A stretch of 59,858 bases of DNA, the filler included, from Platydemus manokwari (taxonomy: Eukaryota): NCBI GenBank assembly GCA_037951405.1. It is 5 parts of 5 records of this genome, joined end to end, with 100 filler letters (N's around TTAATTAATTAA, not from the genome) between each part and the next. Parts side by side here need not be neighbours in the genome. Positions count along the whole stretch, not along the records: positions 50,398 to 59,858 come from JBBMOY011246430.1; 4 more parts are not named here. One strand, 5' to 3'. The notes under the pieces are model-generated. The model did not search any database. It had not been told where the DNA came from and saw only the letters and a program-made list of their open reading frames with translations. The translations under genes and the position numbers were made by a program. Shown here piece after piece: positions 1,866 through 59,858 of this stretch; within the stretch, counting starts at the first letter, position 1, and each line of letters opens with the position of its first letter.

Positions 1866-4353
1866 ACTAAAGTAAAATTTACTATACTTATTTAAAAAAA
1901 TTTAAGTTTAATTATAAATTATTTGTTGATAAATCTTAATTTATTTAACATAATATATAAAATCATAAATTTTCCAACATAAAAATATATTTAACGTAAT
2001 TTAAACAAATTTCCATTCCATTAGATAAAATATTATAACTAAAAAATCAAACTTAATAAGATTACACAAATTTTCATAAATACAATATTAATATTTATAA
2101 TATATAGATTTATGAATTCCTACGTTATTTTTTAAATATAAATAAATGAAATATATGATTTTGATATTGTGATGAAATGAAAATCAAATTTATTTAAGTA
2201 ATGATACTTCTTTGAAATAATTGACTAGATATTTTGAATGTATACAAATGCATTTGTTAATACCATTTGTAATTCAAGAATAAAATTCATCTGAAATTTT
2301 AATAGTCATTGGAATCATACAAAAATTAAAAATTGATAGTAATTATATTAATCTAAATAATAATAATATTAAAAATTATTTTTCATTTTTCATAATGTTG
2401 ATTCATTAACTACAGAAATTACAATAAATTAAGATACGATGTTTTAAGTTAGTTAGAGATTTTAATTTGAGCCGCATGAGCATTCTATGGACATGATGGT
2501 CTGACAAATTAAAATTTAAAATTTGAGCTTACGACGCATTTGAAATTAACTGTTCGTACTTTATTAATATATGCAATACCTCAACCATTACATATGTGGA
2601 AAACAATTCATCATAAAACCGTTAAATTTATGGCCAATAAATTTTAAAAGCAATAACAGGACAATTTCCTTTCAACATCGCATAATTTGTCTATATGTGT
2701 TATGTATTAAATTTAAGTTCTGTTTTAACTTTTCTATCATTAAATTTTAGATAATTCTTAATTCCTATATTGCATGCACTTATTAAACAGGCTTGATATT
2801 TTGTTGAACCGACTCATCCTAGGTGACAACATTTTATGCCCGATTAATTATACATAGTGGCAATGGATAGATTGCATAAACTAACAGTGAAAATCAAAAG
2901 TAAATTTGATGAGAGTAAAATAATTTGAGTGCTGAAATTAACCATTAAGTTTTTGCATGAAAAAAATATTCAAACTGACCTCCACAATTGATAAAAACTC
3001 AAAGATAACCAATTATAATGATAAAGTTGTTCCGAAAGACTTCTTAATGATACGCATAGATTCTTGATTGGTGGCTAACAAAAAGAGGACAAGGAAAATT
3101 CAAAGTTAGGAAGAAAGTATGAATCGGGCCAGATCAAAATAGAAGATCTAAATACAGTTATTAGAATAAGGTCAGAACATCTAGAGGAGTTTCAATTTCT
3201 AAATACTATCAAACCAAGACGGTTCGAATAGTTAAAGAGATGGTTTGAAGATTAATCAGGCGAATCACGTGTTTGCATATTTTAGTATTCAGTTGCTGAT
3301 AATGTTTCTGAAATTTACATTTATATTTATTATGACTCTTATTTATCTTTTGCTTTAGTATTTATTATAAATTATCTATTCGTTTTATTGATTATTTGTA
3401 GTCGATTTTTATGAATATTTTTATAAGGTTTATAATAAAGGGTAATAATTCTATGAATATAACATGATTAGACAATTGATGTTCAATGTTTAAGACCTAA
3501 TGATAGTAAATTGGTAAATGGTGTTTATCAAATTTTGAATAATTGGATAAATTTTAAACAAATTTTCTTGTTTGTAACAAATTTTGAACGGTCTATTAAT
3601 CATACCATTTAAATTGTAGCCTTATGTGAAATCTTTTTAATGTAAATCCACCAGAGTGAACATATATTTCATCACTTTGACAATCACATTTATCCAACCG
3701 TAAATAACAAGTCATTGACATTTCAATTTTTATTTATTTATTCTTAACATAATAATGATACATGATTTATATTTATTATGAAATAAATTTTAAAATTTGA
3801 TTAAATATTTTTTTTAATAATTGCAGAGTCTCTTTTTGTAGAACTTATTTATCTGACTCCAAAAGGAATTATTTTTTTAACTAAGCTATATTTTACACAA
3901 GTTATATTATATAAGATTCTATCACAAAAATAAAAAAGCGAGTGTAGTCCGTGCTACTGACTTTATTACCACGCAGTTTAAATTCTGTTAAAATGCAACA
4001 AAATATTACTCCTATTCGTGCTGACTATCACGAATCCTTTTTATAACACCTTTTACAAATACACTCTATACTATAATAGACGATATAAACTAAAGGTCGA
4101 GTCAGTAATTACCGATTTATTCTAATTTCGTGAGTCATTTATCATTTTCGAATTTGTAAATTAGCATTTGTTTAATTATTTAATTATATTATTTATTTTC
4201 ATTATTATTTGAGCTGTTATTTTATTTTCGTATTAACTTCATTGAAATACTAGGTTCATTTCACGTGTGTATTGAGAGGACGTGATATGCTATCTTTTCT
4301 TTCCGAATACTAATTGATGGTTCCTATTATCTTGTTGAGGATGCATTGCACTC

Positions 4354-8023: not shown

Positions 8024-11000
8024 ATGACTGATGATGGTTTTCAAAGTAAGAAAATTATTGTTAAAACGGAACCAGAAGAAAGCTTAGCTTATGCATCTAA
8101 AACTATCACAAATGTTGATGTTTTATCCGTACATAAAGATTTATCTCTTAGTCCCCTAAACTACGATTTTGATAATGTTGATATTGAATCAATTAATATT
8201 GGTCTGTTTATATAATAATGTTGAGCTTATTTAAATATATTTATAGATGATATATTTAATGAAACTCAGTCACAAGACAATTGGTGTTCAGTTAAAGGTT
8301 TCAGTTTGGTCGAATAACTTAATTATTTTTTTATAGATGAGAACGAAGGAAATTCTAAATATAGAAACAATCTTGAAATTGATAATGTGACAGTTTTATC
8401 AGGTATATGTAATCCAGGTTATACCAACAGTCTTTCTTTGTGTAATTCCGATAAAGAAACATCTTTACCTCAATATTCTAAAGTGGACTTTGGCTTAGAA
8501 GAAAACAAATTATTTCTTATTACCGATATTTTAAATGAAGATAAAGTCTCTTTAAATTCCAAATTTCCCTCCAACAACAGTCCTGTCACTATTATAAATT
8601 CCCAACAAAAATTGGAATGTATTAAACCTCAACTTTCATTACTCTTAAATCAACATAATAACTATGTTGATAATTCGGTGATTTATAATCAAAGAAATTA
8701 TAAGACTGAATCATTATTTAGCATGTCTTGTAATAATTCTAATTTAAATGTTCAACAAATTTCTAATCAATATCCCATTTCAAAAACCAAGATTATTCTG
8801 CCTATAATTGGGCCTTCGTCAAAGAAAAAATGTATCCCAGCGAAAACTGGTAAAATAGTATCACAATTGTGTTTTATCTGTAATGACAATGCAACAGGAA
8901 AACACTATGGTATAATCTTTTGAATATATAATTTATATTTATATTTGGATTTATCGGTTTATTAATTTATGATAGGTAAACTTTTAGATATTTATCCAAT
9001 AATTTACTAAAAACGAGTTTATATTTGAAAATCTTGTTGGAGATCGAGAGAATTTAACATTTTTTTTGAATGACTAAAAGTACTAATGAATACAAATAAC
9101 ATAAAAACTTGTAATATTGGAAATTTATATTTGAATTACAGAATAAAAATATCAGAATATCACGTAATTAGATATTAATCCAATATTTATTAAATCACAT
9201 TTGCTTTTAACTAAGTAATTGTGGGATTATAATAATGTGGATGTTTTTTGGCACGATACTACCCTGTATCTACATTTTATTTTTCACTTTAATATAAATA
9301 TATTTTGGGTTTCGAACGAAGATTTATTAGCAGTAAAGTCAATTATTTTCAATAAAATTACAAGTTTCAATGTTATCAGTTCACTGGAATAAAAATATCA
9401 TTTGATTAAAATCATTATCTATAATTTCTTAAATAATTACTTAAAATTCATATAATAATATATTAAGTTCTAATGTTATAATGATCTACTGTTTTTCAGG
9501 AGTTATTTCGTGTGAAGGTTGTAAGGGTTTTTTTAAAAGAACCGTGAGAAACTCATTACCATACACGTGTAGAGATTTCAATAATTGTGCTGTTGATAAA
9601 AAATTTCGCAATCGCTGCCAAGCTTGTCGTTTTCAGAAATGTCTACAAGTAGGAATGAAACGCGAAGGTTTTAGCTATTCGTTGTTAGTTAAAATTATCC
9701 TAAAATTTGCTAAGCTGTTCAAATTGAAAGACCGGAAAAACGAATCCAAAAATCCATAACAGATACTAGTGAAACAGTCATTTCATCACCTTCATCGGTG
9801 CAGACTGATGAATCCCTGGAGAAGATTCATTACAATTTAATTAATCAAATAAATAGTGATTATATGATGGAAATTGAACTCAAATATAATCCTGATGTTG
9901 AAGAGAAAGGAATTCTCGAAGGGAATGTCATGAAAGTCATTTGTCAACACGTTAATGATCATTTATTTAGCATAGTCTCTTGGGCCAAATATTTACCTGG
10001 ATTTGCAATACTTAATCTTAATGATCAAACATTACTTATCAAAATGTGTAAGCCAATATTTTTATTTATTTATAATACTTAAATTCGTTAATGTATTGTT
10101 AATATTCAATATGATACAATCTATATTATGATAAATTAGAGATTCATGTAGCTGTTTGTTTGTAATTGCAATTTTTGATAGAATAACCTTTCGAATATTG
10201 TATTTTAAAATGTTTAATCCAAGGAGCAGAAACCCCAACAATTGACAATCACAAGAAGCTGTTTTGTGAACTGATTTGTAAAATTAAAACCGAGATGGGA
10301 GGATATCTTAATTATACGGCGAGCAAAAAATATATTGTATAGTTTACGTTTACAGTTTCTTTTTTGGTTTTAATTAAATTTCAACTTTAAATAAATAATT
10401 TATAAGGTCGAAATCGAATTATTAAATTATATACCTCGACTGCCCAGTTCTGGAATAACCAATATTATGTGTAGATGAATAATATCTCCATATTTATACG
10501 ATAAGCAGTGTTTCATTTTATCAATCTACTAGGCGCATTATTATAGATGCGCATCATAAAAAAGCTTATCGATAAAGATGCTAATGAATCATAATGATAT
10601 TCTTTCATTTGATTCTGGTAACATTAGTAATTCGTTACGTGAGAAAATTTTTCATTATTTCACAAAACCAATTTTGCATTAATTTTTGCGATTCTTAAAA
10701 ATCTTTTTTGAAAAATAACCCTTATTAATATCTTTTACGTTATACCAATTCAATAATCTTTAACTAAAGTATTTGGTGATTTAATTATTTCTATAACTCA
10801 CATTGAGTTGTTACCAGAAATTAGCACTTTTCGTTATGCACTAAAATAATATTTCAGTATTGTTATGATTTTCTTTTACATATTGAATACTTATATTAGT
10901 AAAAAGCAATTTTATTTTTAAAATTCTGCTCCAAAATCTTATAATAAATACAAGTTTTTAATACTTGGCCATAAAGTGACCCATTATTTCACATATCTTT

Positions 11001-11646
11001 TATGTAAAATGCAATAATAAATTATAATAAGTATTATTTTCAATTGAATTATACGTATATCCCTGTTTAAGGTTGGGGTGAAATTGTTGTTGCCAACTTT
11101 ACTCACAGATCCATAAAACTTAATGAAGATATGATATTATTGAGAAATGGAACAAAATTAGTTCGAGAAATCGCTCAATCATCTGGAATAGGACAATTGA
11201 TTGATCGTATTATTTGCGAAGTTTTGCATAGATTTAGAGACATGAAAATTGACAAATGCGAATTGTCATATATAAAGGCTATTATTCTTTTCAATCCCAG
11301 TAATTTGAATTGATTATTTTCCTATGTTTTATCTATTTTTGTGTCAGATTTAAAAAAATTGGAAAATAGTTCCTTTGTTCAAATGATTAGAGATAAATTA
11401 TATACATCACTGCAGAAATATTGTCAACAGAAATTTCCTTCGGAAAAATTTAGATTCAGCAAACTGTTGTTAAGATTACCATCTTTGCGATCCATTGCTC
11501 ACAATTGCCTGGATCATTTTCGATTTTATGATATTATTGATAAATGTAGAGCTGAAGTAGTAAATGAAGATGAAAATTTGGAAGATCCTATGTTTAGTTT
11601 TCTTGATGAAATGTTGGGTCATTCAGATATAATTATGGATCACTGA
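8024..11646 (+). CDS. RXR: Retinoid X receptor / ultraspiracle-like nuclear receptor (NR2B), 7 coding exons
   Basis: Exons 8024-8201, 8247-8297, 8337-8909, 9500-9667, 9715-10047, 11072-11299, 11348-11646, all phase-consistent [21 protein letters not shown]|[29 protein letters not shown]-box [62 protein letters not shown]-2 FLDEML. Confidence 0.93.
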
Positions 11647-15205: not shown

Positions 15206-15969
15206 ATGGAAGAACAATTGTGCGAGTCTATCAAGGATAGCTTAGAACGAGATGGAGTGGTATTTTCCTTGCATGAAATTGAGGAAGCTTTGAATTTTTT
15301 AAATAATATGTCAAATTCGTTAATAATAGTTAATGTACCATCTGTAATTTTTGATAATTCTTTAATTAAAGTAAGCAATATTTAATATAAATAGTTAGTA
15401 AAAAATGTTAATTATTAATTTAGGAAAAATTTGAATCATTTTTTATGGAATGTGATAAAAAAACAAAGTTTTCCTATTTAAAAAGTTTCAGAAGAATTAG
15501 GGTGGATATGTCTTCTCCAGACACTGCTATTATTGCTCGTTTTCGTTTCAATAACATAATTAAAGAATGCGCTGATTCCGAAGATTGTCATTCAGTACTA
15601 GTAGAAGTATTGCAATTGGGAAAGGAATCAGAAGAATACTTAGAAACAATGCGATGCTTTTTTGCACAGGACTTAACTATCGAAACACCAGATTATTTAG
15701 AATTGCCCAAATTGGATAAACAATTTCTCATATCTCCTCCAGCTTCTCCACCTGTGGGATGGGAACCTAAACCCGAAGGAGAACCTATTATCAATTATGA
15801 TTTACTTGCTGCATTAGCATCTCTGAGTCCCGGAGAATCTCACGAATTACATCCACCTAGTCATAATTACCCAGGTATAGTCATTACTCCATGTCAAGAT
15901 GAGGATTCTTTTTTCACTAAACGTCCACACGGTAAAATCATCCAGACTCGTTGTCCGGAAAGAAATTAA
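15206..15969 (+). CDS. RCAN: Calcipressin / regulator of calcineurin (RCAN/DSCR1/sarah), 2 exons
   Basis: Exons 15206-15370 and 15424-15969 (53-nt phase-0 intron). RRM-like YLKSFRRIRV, LxxP (YLELP), signature KQFLISPPASPPVGWE, NYDLLAAL, HELH, PxIxIT (PGIVIT), C-terminal TxxP (QTRCP). Confidence 0.95.
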
Positions 15970-50397: not shown

Positions 50398-50966
50398 TTT
50401 TATTCTAAGTCATGAATTGTTATTTCAGTAAGTATCCCAAAAAATCAACCAGTTTTTTCAATAAGAAAATCTTATTATCATAATCCAATAAGCAATGTGA
50501 TATGTCAAAACATCATAGTCCATGAAATTTTATAAGTTAAAAATTATTAGATTATGTTTTGATATTTATCAACGAGATATTTTAAAAAATAATTTGGGAA
50601 ATTATGATTTATAATTTTATTTAAATCGAATACAAAGCTAAAATATTTTTATATAATGTAATATTACTGATAAATATATTAACATTAATTTCAAGATTTA
50701 CTTATTTATAATTCCTTTATCACGATTATTTTTCTACATTATTCAAAAATGGTCGATACTCATGTTTTACTATATTTCAAAAGTACAGTTAATAAATATG
50801 AAATTTTAAAAATTGCACCCATATAATTGAATTTGAAACATAATTTTATCGTTATTGCAGAGAATTTTTAATTTATTTTAAATTATAAAATCAAATATAA
50901 ACATTTAAAAATAAATAGACTTTGTAAAAATTGAATTTAGTTTGTTTTAAATTTACTAAAATATCA

Positions 50967-51858
50967 ATGTCTCAAATTAGTTTAGATTTTTATTGCTATA
51001 AATGCGATTCATATTTTATTCTTAGAGATATTAAAGTTAAACATTTTTGAGTATTTTTATTTGTAATCTTGTGTAATTAGGATCCTTCTTGTGAATTTTG
51101 TCACGATTCATTCGTTGTATCATCGAAAGAGTAGTTTTGACAATTAATATATATTTATTAAGTCTTCGTTAGACATGAAATATTAGAATTTGATGATAAT
51201 GAATACGACGAAATTGATGAAGATTATTATAAAGTTGGAAAATATCCTAGAAGTAGAAACGAAAGGTATATTGGAAAAGCAACTGCTTACAATGTATTTT
51301 CTAATATTTTAGAAAAAATAATTTTATTATAATTAGAACAATCTTACAAATCTTGGAAGTAAAGTATATTTAACACACAATTCTAACATGAACAGGTTAT
51401 TTCAAAGTCAAGGTAATTGAATTAAACTATTAAATTTCTCTATATCTGACGTATTTTAACAGCAGAAATTTCTAATAGTCCTTTTAAACCAATAACTAAT
51501 GAACAAATGGATAGTTTACCTACAGTAGAAATGTGTAGTAGTGGTGTTTCATGCTCAATTTGTTTTATGGAATTCTCAGAGAGCATCGATATAGTGAAAT
51601 CATTATATTGTGGTCATCAATTTCATAAGACATGCTTGAAGAGCTGGCTATGCCAAGTAACTACCACATGTTTGTTATTTTATAAATGTTTCTAAATTTT
51701 AGAAGCTAGAATGTCCTACTTGTCGTCATTTGGTTTCGTTTCAAACAAATACAAATAAAAGATCATTTTCAAGTATTGTTATTGATGGTACCAGATCGAA
51801 TTGCAACGAATCATCAGCATTTGTTACAAATTTTGGAATTGATGCAGAAGAGAAATAA
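50967..51858 (+). CDS. RNF126/RNF115(BCA2)-like E3 ligase: N-terminal zinc ribbon + C-terminal RING-H2
   Basis: Exon 1 50967-51035 FYCYKC; exon 2 51081-51130 CEFCHDSFV; RING-H2 MDSLPTV...CSICFMEF...LYCGHQFHKTCLKSWLCQ|KLECPTCR; stop at 51856-58. Boundaries of the middle micro-exons are uncertain. Confidence 0.85.
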
Positions 51859-53699
51859 TGTGTAAAATAAACGCTTATTCTACTAATTTAGTACTACTAA
51901 TAATTTTTCATTATATATTTCCTTATTAAAATTATTTCGATGTTCGTCTTAGCTATTACATCTATTATTTGAAATAATTTGTAAAAATATTTCTCGTCAC
52001 AAGCATCCTGAATCAATGTTATGTAGTTTCTTAATATATAATTAAATTTTGTCGATGTTTGTATTGCTCATGTTATGTTATGAAAAATTGGATTTCCTAA
52101 TCTGATAAAAATGTCATAATTGGTTGATGTTGCTCATATGAGTGCTTTGTTCCGCTTTATATAATAATTAAACCTTTAATGTATTTTACCATTATGGAAT
52201 TGTACACGTACAATTGGAATCGAATGGATAACAATATTATTTAGCCAATTATCAAATTAATATGGGCGAATTCGATAATATTTGGTGTGAGTTTTATAAG
52301 ATTTTTTTGATATGTTAATACCTTGAAAATTTAATGAAATGATATTTGGATTTTTCATGTTAAGAAAAATTGGATTTTCCAAAGGAGAGTCATGGATAAA
52401 ATCTTTAATAATTGCGACTCGTTTGAGATCCTTAATTCGATTACTTTATAATTATAGTTCTAATATTCAATTATAACTACATTACTCATCTCATTTTGAA
52501 ATATCCGATGATTTTAAATCTTATTTCAGAACAAGTAAACAAAATTCATCGTAATACAACGTCGATACGAGGAATTAATATATTATGTAACGTTTTACCG
52601 AAATTTATCTTCGTATTTATAGATGAGTATCATATCTTATGAATGTTATGACTGTTATATAGTAAATATAAAATAAATAAAAAATTAAAATCAATAAATT
52701 CTTTTTAAAAGAGACGGAAAACAATGACATTTCAATGACAGAATATTTAAACAATTCAGATGACATTGAAATGCCACACGCGATTTATATATTGGAAGCA
52801 GCCAGATTATTGGTCTTCATTTCGCCATTATCCGGATACAGCAATAAAATAAATGTTGCTGTTGAAAGTAAATCCACGTCAGTTTGTTATAAAAACGCGT
52901 ACAAGAAAAAAATAATATAGATGAATAAGATGTGTCGATACAAACTATCGTGAAAGCCAATGCGTATTTTAGTGTTTGTTGCCTGTTATTGGTATGCGCC
53001 AATTGATTATTGAATTCTAAAATAGATTGATATATAAGAAGAATCTGAGTGGCTACTGGCATGAACGCTTATGAAACCCGCGTGTATCAAAACTTGAAGT
53101 TATTTCCATGAATATTTTGGTTGCTTAGGTGACCTCCTTACTAATCTTCCATTTCCTTAAGATTTTGGGACAAAATCTTAAGTCCCGTTAGTTGTCCTGT
53201 TATTTATTGTTCCGTTTGGAGGGGTTCAAAGAAGTAATAAATACTAGGCTGTCTATATGTTTTCTGATACAACTAAATACTAATCATAATGATTCTGCCG
53301 TCAATAATAAGAAAAGTTATTTCAAATATATAATTAGTTAATGTATTAGTAATGTGATTAAATCATGGTTTTGATTATTTAAATTTTCATTGATGAGACT
53401 TGGCTCAAGACTATTGTTATAGTTTTATTTAATAAATGAAAAGAATCAAAATTTTGGTGTTATACGAATACGAATAAGACGGCAATTACTATAATACTAT
53501 TTATAATGAACATTGCTATTTTAGTTCCCAACACAATCTACACCTCTCAGATAGGTACGAAGTGTTCGTACTTTATTTTAACGATAATAATTAAAATATA
53601 AATATTCAAGGTGATCATGAACTATTCTGAAAAATATTATCAAAATAAATATTCAATAAAATAATTCGACTGAAAATAAGCTTTATCAAATAGAATAAA

Positions 53700-53880
53700 T
53701 AGGATCTCAAAGGCCCTTAGGATATATAATGTTACTAGTATTGACGTTCAGACCCTTCAATAAAAACATTCAAGTGTTCACAACCAAGTAGCTAGACACC
53801 CATATGATAATAAACGAAGATAGTCGATAATTACTAGGAACCTTAGAGATTTAGATAAACCACGCAGGTATCATGATAGC
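53700..53880 (+). mobile_element. Gypsy pol 3' end remnant (GPY/F region)
   Basis: LKGP*DI..., QV..HNQ-like segment, and terminal KPRRYHD. Confidence 0.3.
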
Positions 53881-55380
53881 TGTGGGTGTATAATAATATA
53901 TAATAAATTAACTCATAATTTGGGATGTAAAATTGTTTCGTTAAATAAATGCTTTTAAAAATTTGGTTTCGCCAATAAATCTTTCGGTGAATATTGTTTC
54001 GTCCAAAGTTTCTTCTTATAATAATGACAATAAAGCTTCTTACTAAATTCGATTTAACTTCGTAAATAGTTCAATAAATGGTCGTGTGAGGTAAAGTGAG
54101 AGCCGACTGAATTCATATGCGCTAATATAGAGATTTTATAGGTCCCATGAGTCATTTCTATTTCGTTGCTATTTTAGCAACTCTTAAGATGTCATGTTTA
54201 AATTAACAACATTATGAGGACCTTAAATAAATAAATTGAACTATACTATTTTTTGTAATGGCGTGGTTACTAAAAAGAGATTTTAAAATAAATATATTTA
54301 ACGATCTTGAGACTGTTTAAATAAAAATAATTTTTTGGGGTAAAACTAATTTATTGTTTAATTTATTTGTCTAAATTTTTATAGATAAGTCTTTATCGAT
54401 TTATGATTAAGTGATAACTGGTTCACATTAAAGCAATTTTACAAATCATTGAGCATAATAATTCCAATGTTTATTAGGAAATATTTATAAAGTTGATAAA
54501 GAAAACAATCAAAATAAAAAAATAATAATTTTTAATAAATTCATCAGTGAACAATACATAATATTTAATTATGATAAGCTGACAAATGAAATATAAAATA
54601 GTAATAATAATAATAATAGTAACGAGGATGATAATAATTATAATAATAATGATAATAAGTAGTAACAATGAATGAATTTATTATTAATCACTATTATATT
54701 AGTGAAAATTCTTCATCAATTTCGCTTAACAATTTAAATAATTAAATTAAAATTCATTAAAATTGCAGTTCCATAACTAAATTCCTAAAATCGGTGACTG
54801 TATATTCCAATCAATATTAATATTACTGATGCCAAAATCCTCAATTATATATTTAATAAAACTATCTACATTATTCAACTGTATATTATTAAAAAAATTA
54901 AATATGTGCAAAAATAAATGAATTTCATTTAAAATAAATTCATCAACAAACCATGTCCAAGTTAATAATTATTTTATTATACAAAATATAAAATAAGGAA
55001 AAACACTTTTTGAAAACAATAATAACATTAATTCAACAAGTAACAAATAATTACAAACATAAAACCAATATAAAAACACCAATAAACCAATAATTTTATC
55101 TGCTTTGATATCGTCATTGAGTGTTGTACTCACAATTTATTTCGATTACTAAATAATCCTGGTGGTTCACTAATATCGTCGTCATCATGTTGCAATTCTT
55201 TCAAGGTTTTCGGTTGAACATTTTATATAATTGAATTTGTCACATTTGACAATTTCGATTTGATATTGTTAGTTTTTCATAATTAATTACTATGAAATGT
55301 TAACTGATGAATTCATTACAAATTATGATTATGATTATTATGATTATTATTAATATTATATTTATTATTATTATTATTAA

Positions 55381-57376
55381 AGTTAGACAAAAATTAGTTT
55401 TGTTTTAGTATTGAAAGTAACTCGTGTGATTTTTAAGTAAATAAATTTTAATAGAAGCAACTGATGTTTTTACTGGCGACCATGTTAGACTAGAGCCAAA
55501 ATAGAAAAGAGGCAGAAAATTTTTTGCCAATTTGTCACAAAACCCAGGAGTTATTGTAAAGTGGTTTCAAACAAACTAAAGATTTCACCACATTTAATCA
55601 AATAGAACTACTATTTGCACGTGACATGCTGTTGAGAGATAGCGCCAAACAACCATGGCAAGAATTCAGCAATTTCAAAGAAGCTATTTCAAGTGAAGAA
55701 ATTGAGAAATGGTTTTTGGAAACTTTCTCACATGCTAAAACAGTGTACAGCAAAGTTCTGGATTTAGCAGCAATGCAAAAAGACCAAATGAAAAATACCG
55801 CAGTTTTTAATTTCGGGTAAAGAAGCTAGTTTCGGAAGAATTTGACAAGAAAAACACATTTGAAGAAATTTCAAGACTATTTATTCTGAAAGGTCTAAAT
55901 AGCAAGAAGTTGAAAAAGTCTTTTATTCTTGATTCTGCAATGCCCGACTATAAAAGAAGAGAACTGGCTATAAATTTGGAGAAGTTAACTCCGACAAAGC
56001 CTATAAAAGCCATTAAGAAAACATATGCTCAGTCGGTATTTCAAAGTGACCTAAGAAAAACCTTTCAAAAGGAGACTTCGTTCAAAATTTAAAGTCCCAT
56101 AGTGCAGGAAAGAGATTTTGTTGTAAAGGAGTATCATCATGCACCAGTTAATCCCATGAAATCTGCAAACAATACAAGGCCAATAAGATCAATAAAGGCT
56201 ATTGCGTCTAAATTTTAAGAGGAAAACATACACTACGTGGAGATTAATTAAAACCAGTAGCTTGTTTTTGCTCTGTTGAGCTTGTACGCCGGAAGTTTAA
56301 ATGTCCACTGTGAAATAGATGTTTAATATGTGGAAAAGAAGAGCTAGAAAGCCTAGTTACAATACTTTGAGGAAAATACTATGCATATATGACGAGGACG
56401 GTAAAGCCGATATTCAAACCGAAAGTGAAACAAGTGAATGTGTAAGCTTATTCTTCAATGAGGAGAAAAAATATGGAATTAACCTGGAAGGTTAAAATCT
56501 ATACCGAATACCCTTTAATTTATAACATGGTTTTCAATCTTATACGAATTCAATTTCGAATTTCAATATCTTAAGGGATCATATCATGAAAATGCGAATG
56601 TATTCTCAATGACAGGCAAAGCATTTGTCCACATTGCCCAACTCAGCATCAGATGCTAAAGAAGGTAAAACAAAAAGTCGGTTTATTAATGTTGTCGAGC
56701 ATTCAATTGCAAATAATGACGAACTGAAGACTATTTAACAAAAAGATACTGTCGTTGGTTCATTAAAGAAAGAAGTTACCTCCCCATACCAACATCAGGC
56801 AAATGGCTTAGCCGAAAGAACTCTCAGAGACAAGGTGGTAACAACGATGGCATCAGAGAAACACGCTTGGGATAAATGAATACCTTGAATAGAATTCATC
56901 ATCAATGCAACATATCAAAGTTTAATTCAACATTCTCCTTTTCAAATATTGTTTGGACGAAGAATTAATATGCATTGGTTACAACTAAATGAACCACTCC
57001 ACCATGACCATATCATCAAAAACCGGAAAACCAGCTTAAATCAGTAGCTACAAACCTAAGGAAATTCGATGCTAAAAAAGAGGTTGTAAAATTTTCGAGG
57101 TTGAAAAAACGTTTTAGTGAAGAAAGAACCTCACAATATAAAGAAAAAGGGATCGTTATGAAGGTCATTACAGAATTTGAAACATTTTAATCCCACGTGA
57201 AGCGCTTTTTAATTTCCAGGGACAGACAAAACCTCAAAGAATTGAGTGGTTAAAAAGGATCTCAAAAACCATGGGAGAGGGAAGTTAGATAAAAATTAGT
57301 TTTGTTTAATTATTGATAGAATCACATGTGATTTTCAAATAAATAAATATTAATGGAAGAAAAATATGTTTTTGCT
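55381..57376 (+). mobile_element. Structurally complete but internally deleted Gypsy-type LTR retrotransposon (2.0 kb)
   Basis: 94-bp LTRs at 55381-55474 and 57283-57376 (AGTTAG...ACT/GCT), 5-bp TSD ATTAA on both sides, PBS TGGCGACCATG at 55474, PPT GGGAGAGGGA at 57273-57282. Gag fragments (ORFs 55626, 55910). Integrase TSPYQHQANGLAER...WDK*IP*IEFIINATYQSLIQHSPFQILFGR. Confidence 0.9.
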
Positions 57377-57512
57377 ATTAATATTATCATATTGATTTTG
57401 ATTTATTTTATAAAATGTATTGATATTTCTCAATAAAATTAAAAATAAAAAATTCAAAATTTAAAGAAAATTTTCAAAGGTGAGTTTTAGTGTTATCAAT
57501 AGGGATTTTCAT

Positions 57513-58245
57513 AATTTCAGAGTTTTTCCTCGTCGAGATTTGTAAAATTTCATGAATTTTTCATTGATTTTCTATAATAAAAACAAACTTTTGGGGTGAC
57601 CATTTTTCGACATAATTTGTGCCATTTAACGTTTACTTAGTGAGATTTAAAGTACTTTCTTTGAGATGATAGACGTTTCTTCAAATTTCATGGATTTTCC
57701 GAAATTTAAATACCATTATCAAAAACGAGTATTTATCCGTTAGCTATAGGATAATGAAAAATTTCAGATTTTTTCCTCATTGAATTTTGTAAAATTTTAT
57801 TAATTTTTCATTGATTTTCAAAAATATACATAAATATTTGAGTGACCACGTTTCGATCTTATATTAGCCATTTAACGTTTATACAGCGAGATTTTCGAGT
57901 TTCATCTTTGAAATGATCAACTTTTCATCAAATTGTTCAGTTGAGTTTTTTCGATAATTATAAGAATTTCGAGAATTTAATCTTTTGCTCTTTTTTAGAT
58001 TTGTAAAATTTCATTTGTTTTTCGTAGATTTTCTGTAATATAGACAAATATTTCATGACCATTTTTCCACCTTATTTTGGGCATTTATTTAGAGAGATTT
58101 TCGGGTTTTTTCTTTATGACGATAAACTTGTTAAAGTTGACTTTTTTCGTTAATTTTTAGAATTTTGAAGATTCGATCTTTTTCACTACTTTAGATATGT
58201 CAAATCTCATTAGTCTTTCATTGAGTTTCTAAGGTATAGACAAAA
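57513..58245. repeat. Degenerate tandem repeat, ~200-250-bp unit, ~4 copies
   Basis: Recurring tttgtaaaatttcat...ttttcattgattttc...tgacca.tttt...gccatttaacgttt...gagattt at ~57538, 57786, 57999, 58195. Confidence 0.75.
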
Positions 58246-58277
58246 AAGTATGCCAATTCATCGACGTTAATTTGGAT

Positions 58278-58302
58278 ATATAACATATATAACATATATA
58301 AC

Positions 58303-58356
<54 letters not shown>
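58278..58356. repeat. (ATATAACAT)n + (AAT)n simple repeats
   Basis: Visible directly. Confidence 0.9.
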
Positions 58357-58357
<1 letters not shown>

Positions 58358-58409
58358 TTTATTTATAGTTACAAAAGTCGTTTTAAAAACGCCAAGTATT
58401 TATATAATT

Positions 58410-58937
58410 CTAAAATTTTGTTTTAATCAACCCATTACAATTAAATCTTCCCAACATCTTTTCTTCTTTTAAATCTATCAATCTATAAGTTATGGGTTTG
58501 GTTTTACAAACCTCTTTAATAATAGAGATTTCCTTTGAATATTTTGTGGTATATCCTTTTTCGAACTTGTATTTATATTTGAAAATTCTCACTTTATCTA
58601 GAACTTTAAATTTTGGTTGAGCATTTAAATTATTATTAAAATTATTCCATTCTCCAATTTTTTCTTTAATTATTTCTGGATTTTTACTAGGTTCAGCAGG
58701 GGTAACTCCAATATTTGAATGAATTTTATTATTATATTTAAAAACAAAATTTTGCAATAAATTATTATCCCATTTATAACTTCCAGCCGCTGTAAAATGT
58801 TTCTACATAATATTTTTCAAAGTTCTAATAAAAATTTCTGCAAAAACAGCTTTACCTTCATTTTCTATATGAAATAAAATGATTTTATTTTCATCACAAA
58901 ATTTTTTAAAAAATTTACCTCTAATTCCAGATTCGAG
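58410..58937 (-). pseudogene. Maverick/Polinton (adintovirus-type) c-integrase, C-terminal half, one in-frame stop
   Basis: LESGIRGKFFKKFCDENKIILFHIENEGKAVFAEIFIRTLKNIM*KHFTA...YNNKIHSNIGVTP...PKFKVLDKVRI...FEKGYTTKYSKE...PITYRLIDLKEEKMLGRF, the characteristic Polinton integrase core and C-terminal signature. Confidence 0.9.
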
Positions 58938-59381
58938 CCCATTTTTGACCCGTATAATTATGTACAGGATTACTTTTGTTTAATGGATTCATCCTTTTAA
59001 AATGAAATTCCCCCAGATGACAACCAGTACTAAATTTATTTCAAAACCAATTATTTGTAATTGCTTCTTATATATCACCTCCCGCTACTATCTTATTTGG
59101 ATCACCTCCAATAAATTTAAAACCTCTTAATTTCTTACTTTTCGAACTGGTACTAAAAGTCGAACTTTGTTCAAGTTCGGCGAACGAAGTTCTTTCCCTT
59201 CCTTTGGCATATTCATACTATTAGTACCACTCGTATTTTTCATACTCATACCATTCGTACTATTTATATTCGTATTATTCGCACTCTTACCATTCATATG
59301 AGATTTGACTTTTTCATGTTTTGATTTATTAGATTTATAAGTTTTCTTATCACAAATCTGACAAAAATAATTTGTACACAT
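58938..59381 (-). pseudogene. Polinton-like ORF: C2H2-type zinc finger followed (after a frameshift) by a truncated PLA2X/parvovirus-VP1u-like N-terminus
   Basis: YFCQICDKKTYKSNKSKHEKVKSH, then GGDI*EAI...GEFHF...VHNYTGQK, resembling GGDIQK..E.H..Y.YxGPGT. Cut at the junction with the integrase. Confidence 0.55.
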
Positions 59382-59444
59382 TTTTAAAATCTAAAAATAA
59401 TCCCCCAAAAATGGGGACAAATAGTTTAAAATTTATTGAGGAAA

Positions 59445-59735
59445 ATGGAAAACGGTTATTTAAAAAAAGTAGAAAATTCTGGAGAATCTATAATATGTTA
59501 TGGTGAAACATTTATGCTTACTTATTGTAAACACTATTTGCTTGAAGAATGTAATAAAAAAAATAGATACGATAAATGTCCTTATTGTATACAAAATATA
59601 CATGAAATGATCATTCTATTGAATTGCATAAATATAAAAATTTCTGAATATATCATTAGAGAATTCCAAGATGAAGTAAATTGGAAAGTTATTTCAGAAC
59701 ATCAAGATTTATCGGAAGATTTTATAAGAGAATGA
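59445..59735 (+). pseudogene. Viral-type RING finger (eroded) fused to a tryptophan-repeat unit
   Basis: ESIICY...LTYCKHYLLEEC...KCPYC (RING with two ligands mutated), then ISEYIIREFQDEVNWKVISEHQDLSEDFIRE, matching the LSE.FIREF.D.VNW..IS..Q tryptophan repeat. Confidence 0.7.
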
Positions 59736-59858
59736 TTCAGTAATAAATGAATTTATTGTTGTAAATAAACCAACACCTGCACCACAATATAAAGCAATTG
59801 TTGGTAAAATTCCAAAACCTGAAAGAACTGGTAAAATGGTAGATATTATAGTTAAAGC
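59727..59858 (+). pseudogene. Partial intronless ORF with a KPxPAP motif, probably part of the same viral element
   Basis: ..VINEFIVVNKPTPAPQYKAIVGKIPKPERTGKMVDIIVK, open to the window end. Confidence 0.35.

Follow-up and report, generated by a model that had tools for sequence, protein, structure and literature searches.

The right end of a 59,858-nucleotide window (filler included) from the Platydemus manokwari assembly GCA_037951405.1, in which positions 50,398 to 59,858 come from JBBMOY011246430.1, raises the question of what kind of element left a crowded set of eroded open reading frames at 58410–59858. The original prediction was a deleted copy of a Polinton-like virus with an unusual accessory gene set. 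We found that this stretch is a dead, twice-deleted endogenous Maverick/Polinton copy from a multi-copy family. Our preferred reading, to which we assign a probability of about two in three, is that in this dead copy of a multi-copy Maverick the zinc finger, PLA2 and integrase likely belonged to a single gene, and that a group I intron likely interrupted this gene at the Gly-Pro of the PLA2 calcium loop. The accessory set turned out to be less unusual than proposed, as one of its members is an antisense shadow and two others, the zinc finger and the PLA2, likely belong to the integrase gene as domains. What is novel about the relic is likely the probable PLA2-integrase fusion combined with the probable intron.

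Similarity searching, profile matching and tree placement all assign the minus-strand region 58410–58934 to the second half of an rve integrase core and its C-terminal domain. Searching with the minus frame at 58413–58979 (X at the stop) matched 19 of 128 candidate proteins, and 12 of those 19 have an rve domain, with a best match of 66% identity (E = 1.8e-64). A profile of the fusion proteins described below matched 58416–58934 at E = 8e-55. The region contains a single in-frame stop at 58803–58805, and its frame terminates at 58410–58412, where P0006, P0093 and other relatives end too. The Maverick-type integrase C-terminus proposed for the minus strand was therefore upheld by the rve matches, the profile and the tree. 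The window integrase has no C-terminal chromodomain, and the only one among 13 full-length fusions belongs to P0094.

We placed the integrase in an unrooted tree of 65 rows, made up of 26 proteins plus 39 of another 52 loci, after exclusion of those loci whose matches were short. The window integrase grouped with the fused protein P0093 and the N-truncated P0006 at support 100/98. It also falls in a 26-row clade (97/92) that includes 13 of the 14 rows labelled fused. Within the 17-row group immediately around it, 11 rows are full fusions and P0008 starts with a PLA2 tail. Solved retroelement integrases matched the family profile only at E of about 2e-8, over the core, and the tree was built without Ginger or Gypsy rows. 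A sub-clade comprising P0006, P0011, P0093 and the window (58900–58934) shares an altered motif after the second catalytic Asp. Separately, 28 loci with Maverick-type or related integrases (L026–L053) were found in records titled as bacterial genomes or MAGs, and many of them probably reflect eukaryotic or viral contigs that were binned wrongly.

In run X1, 2800 contigs aligned to 58380–59858 (1479 bases). Because 1094 of these were less than 90% alike, the copy belongs to a diverged multi-copy family. Parts of the stretch were present in four runs, X1 to X4, with shares in X2 to X4 that were small and uninformative about habitat; summed contig depths were not treated as copy numbers. The window's right end, 59858, falls inside the element. 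Neither pPolB, A32 ATPase, DJR major capsid, minor capsid nor adenain is found in the window, whose edge cuts the element. A metagenome scan for relatives returned 13 loci. L001, L009 and the IMG/VR contig L014 are the closest loci with flanks, and capsid genes adjoin the integrase in each. L001 has a DJR capsid gene (Pfam, E = 5e-28) and an A32 ATPase gene downstream of its fused gene, and L014 carries pPolB, ATPase and DJR capsid genes (Pfam) on one near-complete contig. Minor capsid and protease ORFs of the relative loci were assigned by eye only. Scanning IMG/VR with the window integrase, with alignment A1 or with P0114 or P0093 yielded no relative, and a scan using the second exon of L014 returned only L014 itself. 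The idea of a deleted Polinton-like copy with relatives held, given its multi-copy state in X1 and relatives that adjoin DJR capsid and A32 ATPase genes, joined in L014 by pPolB. The working element was most likely a virion-forming Polinton.

Two deletions account for the present shape of the copy. Junction 1 (58933/58934) is located by contig departures, profile start and residue count. Contigs depart from the window sequence on the integrase side in all four runs and on the PLA2 side in three of four, and the fusion-protein profile match begins exactly at 58934. Relative to P0093, the nearest full-length relative, about 218 codons are missing here, corresponding to most of the PLA2 and the first half of the integrase. 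Junction 2 (59731) is marked by loose contig ends in three of four runs (six contigs in X1, plus X2 and X4) and by the point where similarity to P0114 stops. This deletion took the 3' ends of two convergent genes. With three in-frame stops and a frame change, the copy at 58410–59858 is dead. The packing in the earlier description of tightly packed, eroded ORFs is partly a product of the deletions at 58933/58934 and 59731.

Reading leftward on the minus strand, the gene pieces begin with a C2H2-like zinc finger at 59298–59381, identified by similarity to the L001 ORF and by profile. It starts at ATG 59381 with a profile E of 1e-4, as anticipated for this strand, and matches the N-terminus of the fused L001 ORF with 47% identity over 38 residues (E = 2e-7). 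It is likely the first domain of the fused gene. A low-complexity linker that changes frame in this copy (59083–59297, minus strand) extends from the zinc finger to the PLA2; this linker varies in length, with other X1 copies having shorter versions of several lengths. Next comes a putative parvovirus-type PLA2 start (58948–59082, minus strand), delimited by family alignment from a Gly-Gly-Asp-Ile site to the calcium-loop Gly and interrupted by two stops at 59068–59070 and 59041–59043. Statistical support for this start is weak: its alignment score was reached by 1 of 500 shuffles for P0093, 0 of 500 for P0091 and 79–180 of 500 for three other relatives. A PLA2 sub-profile run against 5970 tiles missed the eroded copy in the window. 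The window and P0093 share an insert ahead of the calcium loop.

The architecture of relatives suggests how these pieces belong together. In L001, a single 441-codon ORF combines the zinc finger, PLA2 (E = 3e-12) and rve (E = 6e-13), and PLA2 is also fused to the integrase in L003 and L014. We searched for further fusions with the first 160 residues of the L001 ORF among 160 candidate proteins, restricted to lengths of 242–772 residues. PF08398 and PF00665 occurred together in 15 of the 16 matches including the query, or 14 of the 15 others; since the length limit excludes free PLA2 genes, this proportion shows that fusions exist rather than how frequent they are. The PLA2 His-Asp and the integrase D, D, E were kept in all 13 full-length fusions. 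More distant elements, such as L010, L011, L015 and L027, have PLA2 separate from the integrase. The best match of the fused protein in a fold search was the MELD virus integrase. We found no description of a PLA2-integrase fusion in the literature, which consisted mostly of open papers, and supplementary genome maps could show fused genes.

The junction 1 deletion removed the PLA2-integrase join, so the fusion cannot be read directly in the window copy. We infer it for this host from domain order, strand and kinship, and the window's zinc finger, PLA2 start and integrase are likely parts of one broken gene. The original prediction had the order of zinc finger, PLA2X-like start and integrase and their minus strand right, but treated as separate genes what was likely a single one. 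The PLA2X label did not survive, as the PLA2 of the relatives precedes rve rather than a pX-like tail, in a part of the gene that is missing from the window. The integrase lacks the adintovirus chromodomain. In L001, an Adeno_PX-like match (E = 9e-4, below cut-off) sits in another ORF and not after the PLA2.

Gly-Gly pairs flank the PLA2 in this family. Gly-Gly-Asp-Leu/Ile lies ahead of the PLA2 in 13 of 16 proteins and Gly-Gly occurs at the PLA2-integrase join in 14 of 16, with only three Gly-Gly pairs elsewhere, over 3854 residues. Of the two sites, the first (Gly-Gly-Asp-Ile) survives in the window. The predicted structure of the fused protein has low-confidence linkers at residues 29–39 and 151–183, coinciding with both Gly-Gly places. 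Adenovirus-type proteases cut after Gly-Gly.

Divergently oriented from the zinc finger is an accessory gene on the plus strand. Exactly 63 bp (59382–59444) separate the two ATGs, matching the divergent spacer described earlier, and a diverged copy bridges it (59311–59561). The accessory ORF (59445–59735, plus strand) encodes an eroded RING finger and one unit of a Trp-containing repeat before being truncated at junction 2. Pfam RING models matched at E = 0.0035–0.09, all below cut-off, and the repeat was found in 55 of 108 candidate proteins and matched phrog_3532 at E = 6e-9. The RING and Trp-repeat ORF is real, with its RING below Pfam cut-offs. At least one more diverged copy links the RING ORF to the start of the zinc finger.

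Beyond junction 2, the minus strand at 59731–59858 encodes the middle (residues 84–127) of a 193-residue protein, P0114, according to phmmer (E = 8e-16, 93% identity over 44 residues). P0114 was the only match in 1.84 billion representatives. It has a long hydrophobic stretch and may resemble adintovirus GasderminX. No Pfam model matched P0114, its predicted fold (pLDDT 46) had no fold match at E of 0.001 or better, and it showed no similarity to the hydrophobic ORF of L014 (E = 2.2). We rejected the overlapping plus-strand KPxPAP ORF as a gene. Its 43 residues include a single Met, at position 37, neither Pfam nor PHROG matched it, and it is the antisense shadow of the P0114-like frame.

The case for an intron rests on where the PLA2 frame ends. 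In the window it ends at the calcium-loop Gly at 58948, followed by 14 bases (58934–58947, minus strand) and then junction 1. Judging by its P1-like stem and the L014 boundary match, this stump is likely what remains of a group I intron at its 5' end. Folded together with the five bases that close the exon, it gives a P1-like stem of 6 bp in which a U·G pair falls at the predicted splice site (58948/58947). The stem folds at -5.9 kcal/mol, a value equalled by 1 of 200 shuffles at 27 nt, and z-scores in longer folds were not significant (-0.7 and -1.4). In a test framed after the stem was seen, such stems arose in 103 of 19824 random 14-mers (about 0.5%) and 66 of 20000 shuffles. Other copies match the stump bases up to 58933 and then diverge from the window.

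In L014, the fused PLA2-integrase gene is broken by a 302-base intron (3280–3581) after the same five-residue motif that ends the window's PLA2. This intron matches the whole RF00028 model at 52 bits (gathering 50; E = 3e-12), has a terminal G, and leaves the exons in frame. L014 also forms a P1-like stem with U·G at the last exon base. Across the exon-intron boundary, 18 of 20 bases are identical between the window and L014, compared with 15 of 20 for the next best window 20-mer; since 15 of the 20 boundary bases are coding, protein conservation accounts for part of this match. The intron-free loci L001 and L003 have GGNCC at this codon pair, and L014 (10671 bases) contains no GGNCC sites against 6.4 expected. 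A GIY-YIG gene lies directly upstream of the split PLA2-integrase gene in L014 (2804–3581). In L001, an HNH-like ORF (1470–2075; assigned by eye, no Pfam match) is located between the intron-free fused gene and the capsid gene.

L014 is the sole intron-bearing locus in the set and, according to the tree, is not the closest relative of the window integrase; the nearest full-length relative, P0093, is intron-free. Rfam found no group I intron over 55000–59858 and no intron over ten other loci. A gathering-mode scan of 11 loci gave no matches, though the L014 intron later scored 52 bits. The catalytic core P3–P9 and the terminal G are present in L014 and absent from the window copy past junction 1, and the stump itself is consequently not assigned to group I introns. 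The core of the putative intron would have been lost with the junction 1 deletion. From these sequence comparisons, the family in this host likely carried the intron, with splicing as a prediction. Instead of separate, intronless ORFs as first proposed, the three minus-strand pieces are probably one gene that was probably once intron-bearing. We found no description of a group I intron in animal Polinton/Maverick elements in the literature, which consisted of mostly open papers without their supplements.

Could the same relic have arisen without an intron? A dead Maverick with a fused PLA2-integrase gene might show 14 bases of decayed coding sequence or deletion filler at this place, with the stem formed by chance. 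Those bases are free of stops and can be read as open codons, Rfam is blank over 55000–59858, and the nearest full-length relatives are continuous ORFs. However, coding similarity ends at the exact codon of the L014 intron, L014 has matching first intron bases and a matching U·G stem, and other copies carry the same bases to 58933 before diverging. The low frequency of the stem in random 14-mers and shuffles also speaks against chance, and we regard an intron-free origin as unlikely.

Still less probable is an ordinary Alpha-type adintovirus whose separate zinc-finger, PLA2X and integrase genes were juxtaposed by deletion. A deletion has indeed brought the PLA2 start up against the integrase, and a free PLA2 is the published norm in the accessible text of PMC8502044 and PMC5803895, as well as the arrangement in L010 and L011. 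Yet the rows around the window integrase are mostly full fusions (11 of 17) with P0008 opening on a PLA2 tail, the window integrase lacks a chromodomain, and the pX-like domain of L001 is on a different ORF. We consider it very improbable that the element was a capsid-less transposon, either Ginger-like or a reduced Maverick, that had the fused gene and made no particles in this host. The window lacks capsid, ATPase, protease and polymerase genes, as such a transposon would, but capsid genes adjoin the integrase in L001, L009 and L014, and a fold search matched the fused protein best to a viral integrase. We therefore retain the multi-copy Maverick with a probable three-domain gene and a probable intron as the preferred reading.

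If so, a working copy can be pictured as follows. The intron would self-splice from the message, and the adenovirus-type protease of the element is predicted to cleave the three-domain protein at both Gly-Gly sites bracketing the PLA2. The freed PLA2 would then aid the exit of the particle from the endosome, and the co-packaged integrase would insert the genome on arrival. Because the intron is upstream of both enzymes, its imprecise loss would cost the element both. A nuclease that cuts the intron-free GGNCC site may spread the intron by homing.

A broader claim, toward which we lean slightly, is that the nucleus of this animal contains a large Polinton family and that a self-splicing group I intron interrupts its essential PLA2-integrase polyprotein gene at a conserved GGNCC. 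As an unrelated viral contig has an intron at that site too, such introns would home among animal Polintons across host lineages, and would have to splice in animal nuclei for virus entry and integration. To our knowledge, nuclear group I introns are found only in microbial eukaryotes. If the claim is true, an animal nucleus must splice a group I ribozyme from a protein-coding message. The fused gene suggests a way in which a Polinton could bring its integrase along in the particle, bound to an enzyme associated with the capsid and then released by the viral protease, similar to the delivery of retroviral Pol. Particle infection by animal Mavericks would become testable via one protein and one RNA. 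The window copy is itself dead, and its worth is that it points to the multi-copy family and documents the intron site in a further host.

The surroundings of the element include other repeats and host genes. A decayed retroelement-like stretch (55380–57376) has a 95-base direct repeat (82%) at both ends and an integrase-like motif near 56739–57044 that was recognized by eye and has no Pfam match. Four diverged repeat copies spaced 196–247 bases apart occupy 57478–58244, and 9-base and ATA microsatellites extend up to 58357, just left of the element. Elsewhere in the window, host genes include a nuclear receptor with a C4 zinc finger (8318–11643), a zinc finger family confined to animals and so a mark of an animal host, and a calcipressin gene (15424–15966) with its Pfam match within a single 181-codon frame.

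How does this element compare with known systems? The naming of the group is fluid: the accessible part of bioRxiv 10.64898/2026.06.19.733378 treats Mavericks, Polintons and adintoviruses as synonymous and describes phospholipase as common in group 2. Narrower usage appears in the available text of PMC8502044, where PLA2X is defined as a PLA2 with a pX-like tail, and in that of PMC11071296, where adintovirus integrases have a distinctive C-terminal chromodomain. The strict definition (Starrett 2021, Buck 2024) also names a PolB bearing an N-terminal OTU domain and a recognisable Hexon, and the window contains neither gene. We do not class the stretch as an adintovirus in the strict sense. Neither the fusion nor the intron is shown in the accessible portions of PMC3671162, 10.1101/2023.08.22.554363 and PMC11296320.

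The Alpha (Mayetiola-class) adintoviruses, or group 2 Maverick-Polintons of the Polintoviricetes, are alike in having a Maverick-type rve integrase, a parvovirus-type PLA2 and an animal host, as far as the available text of PMC8502044 describes them. They have DJR capsid, A32 ATPase and pPolB genes in common with the window's relatives. In contrast to their free PLA2X with a pX tail, the PLA2 here stands in front of the integrase, the chromodomain is absent from the window and from 12 of 13 full-length fusions, and a group I intron is likely. The insect Sf Maverick CAP/INT similarly has a PLA2 with catalytic and calcium residues and an rve integrase, but the accessible text of PMC5803895 lists these as two separate ORFs and gives its integrase a chromodomain, unlike the window family.

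For the intron, the accessible part of PMC12220804 describes Polinton-like viruses from a few protist groups that carry group I introns. Those of Rhodomonas lacustris, Paulinella micropora and Desmodesmus armatus are RF00028 introns of the self-splicing type, about 300 bases long and located in a protein gene of an integrating DNA virus, similar in size to the 302 bases of L014. According to the same text, the Rhodomonas intron is in a short gene before the capsid gene, whereas here it would be in the PLA2-integrase gene of an element with an animal host. L014 itself differs from the window in being a near-complete element with a whole intron and a GIY-YIG gene upstream, and its integrase is not the sister of the window's. 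Nevertheless, the two have in common the fused gene (probable in the window), the insertion codon, the P1 layout and 18 of 20 boundary bases.
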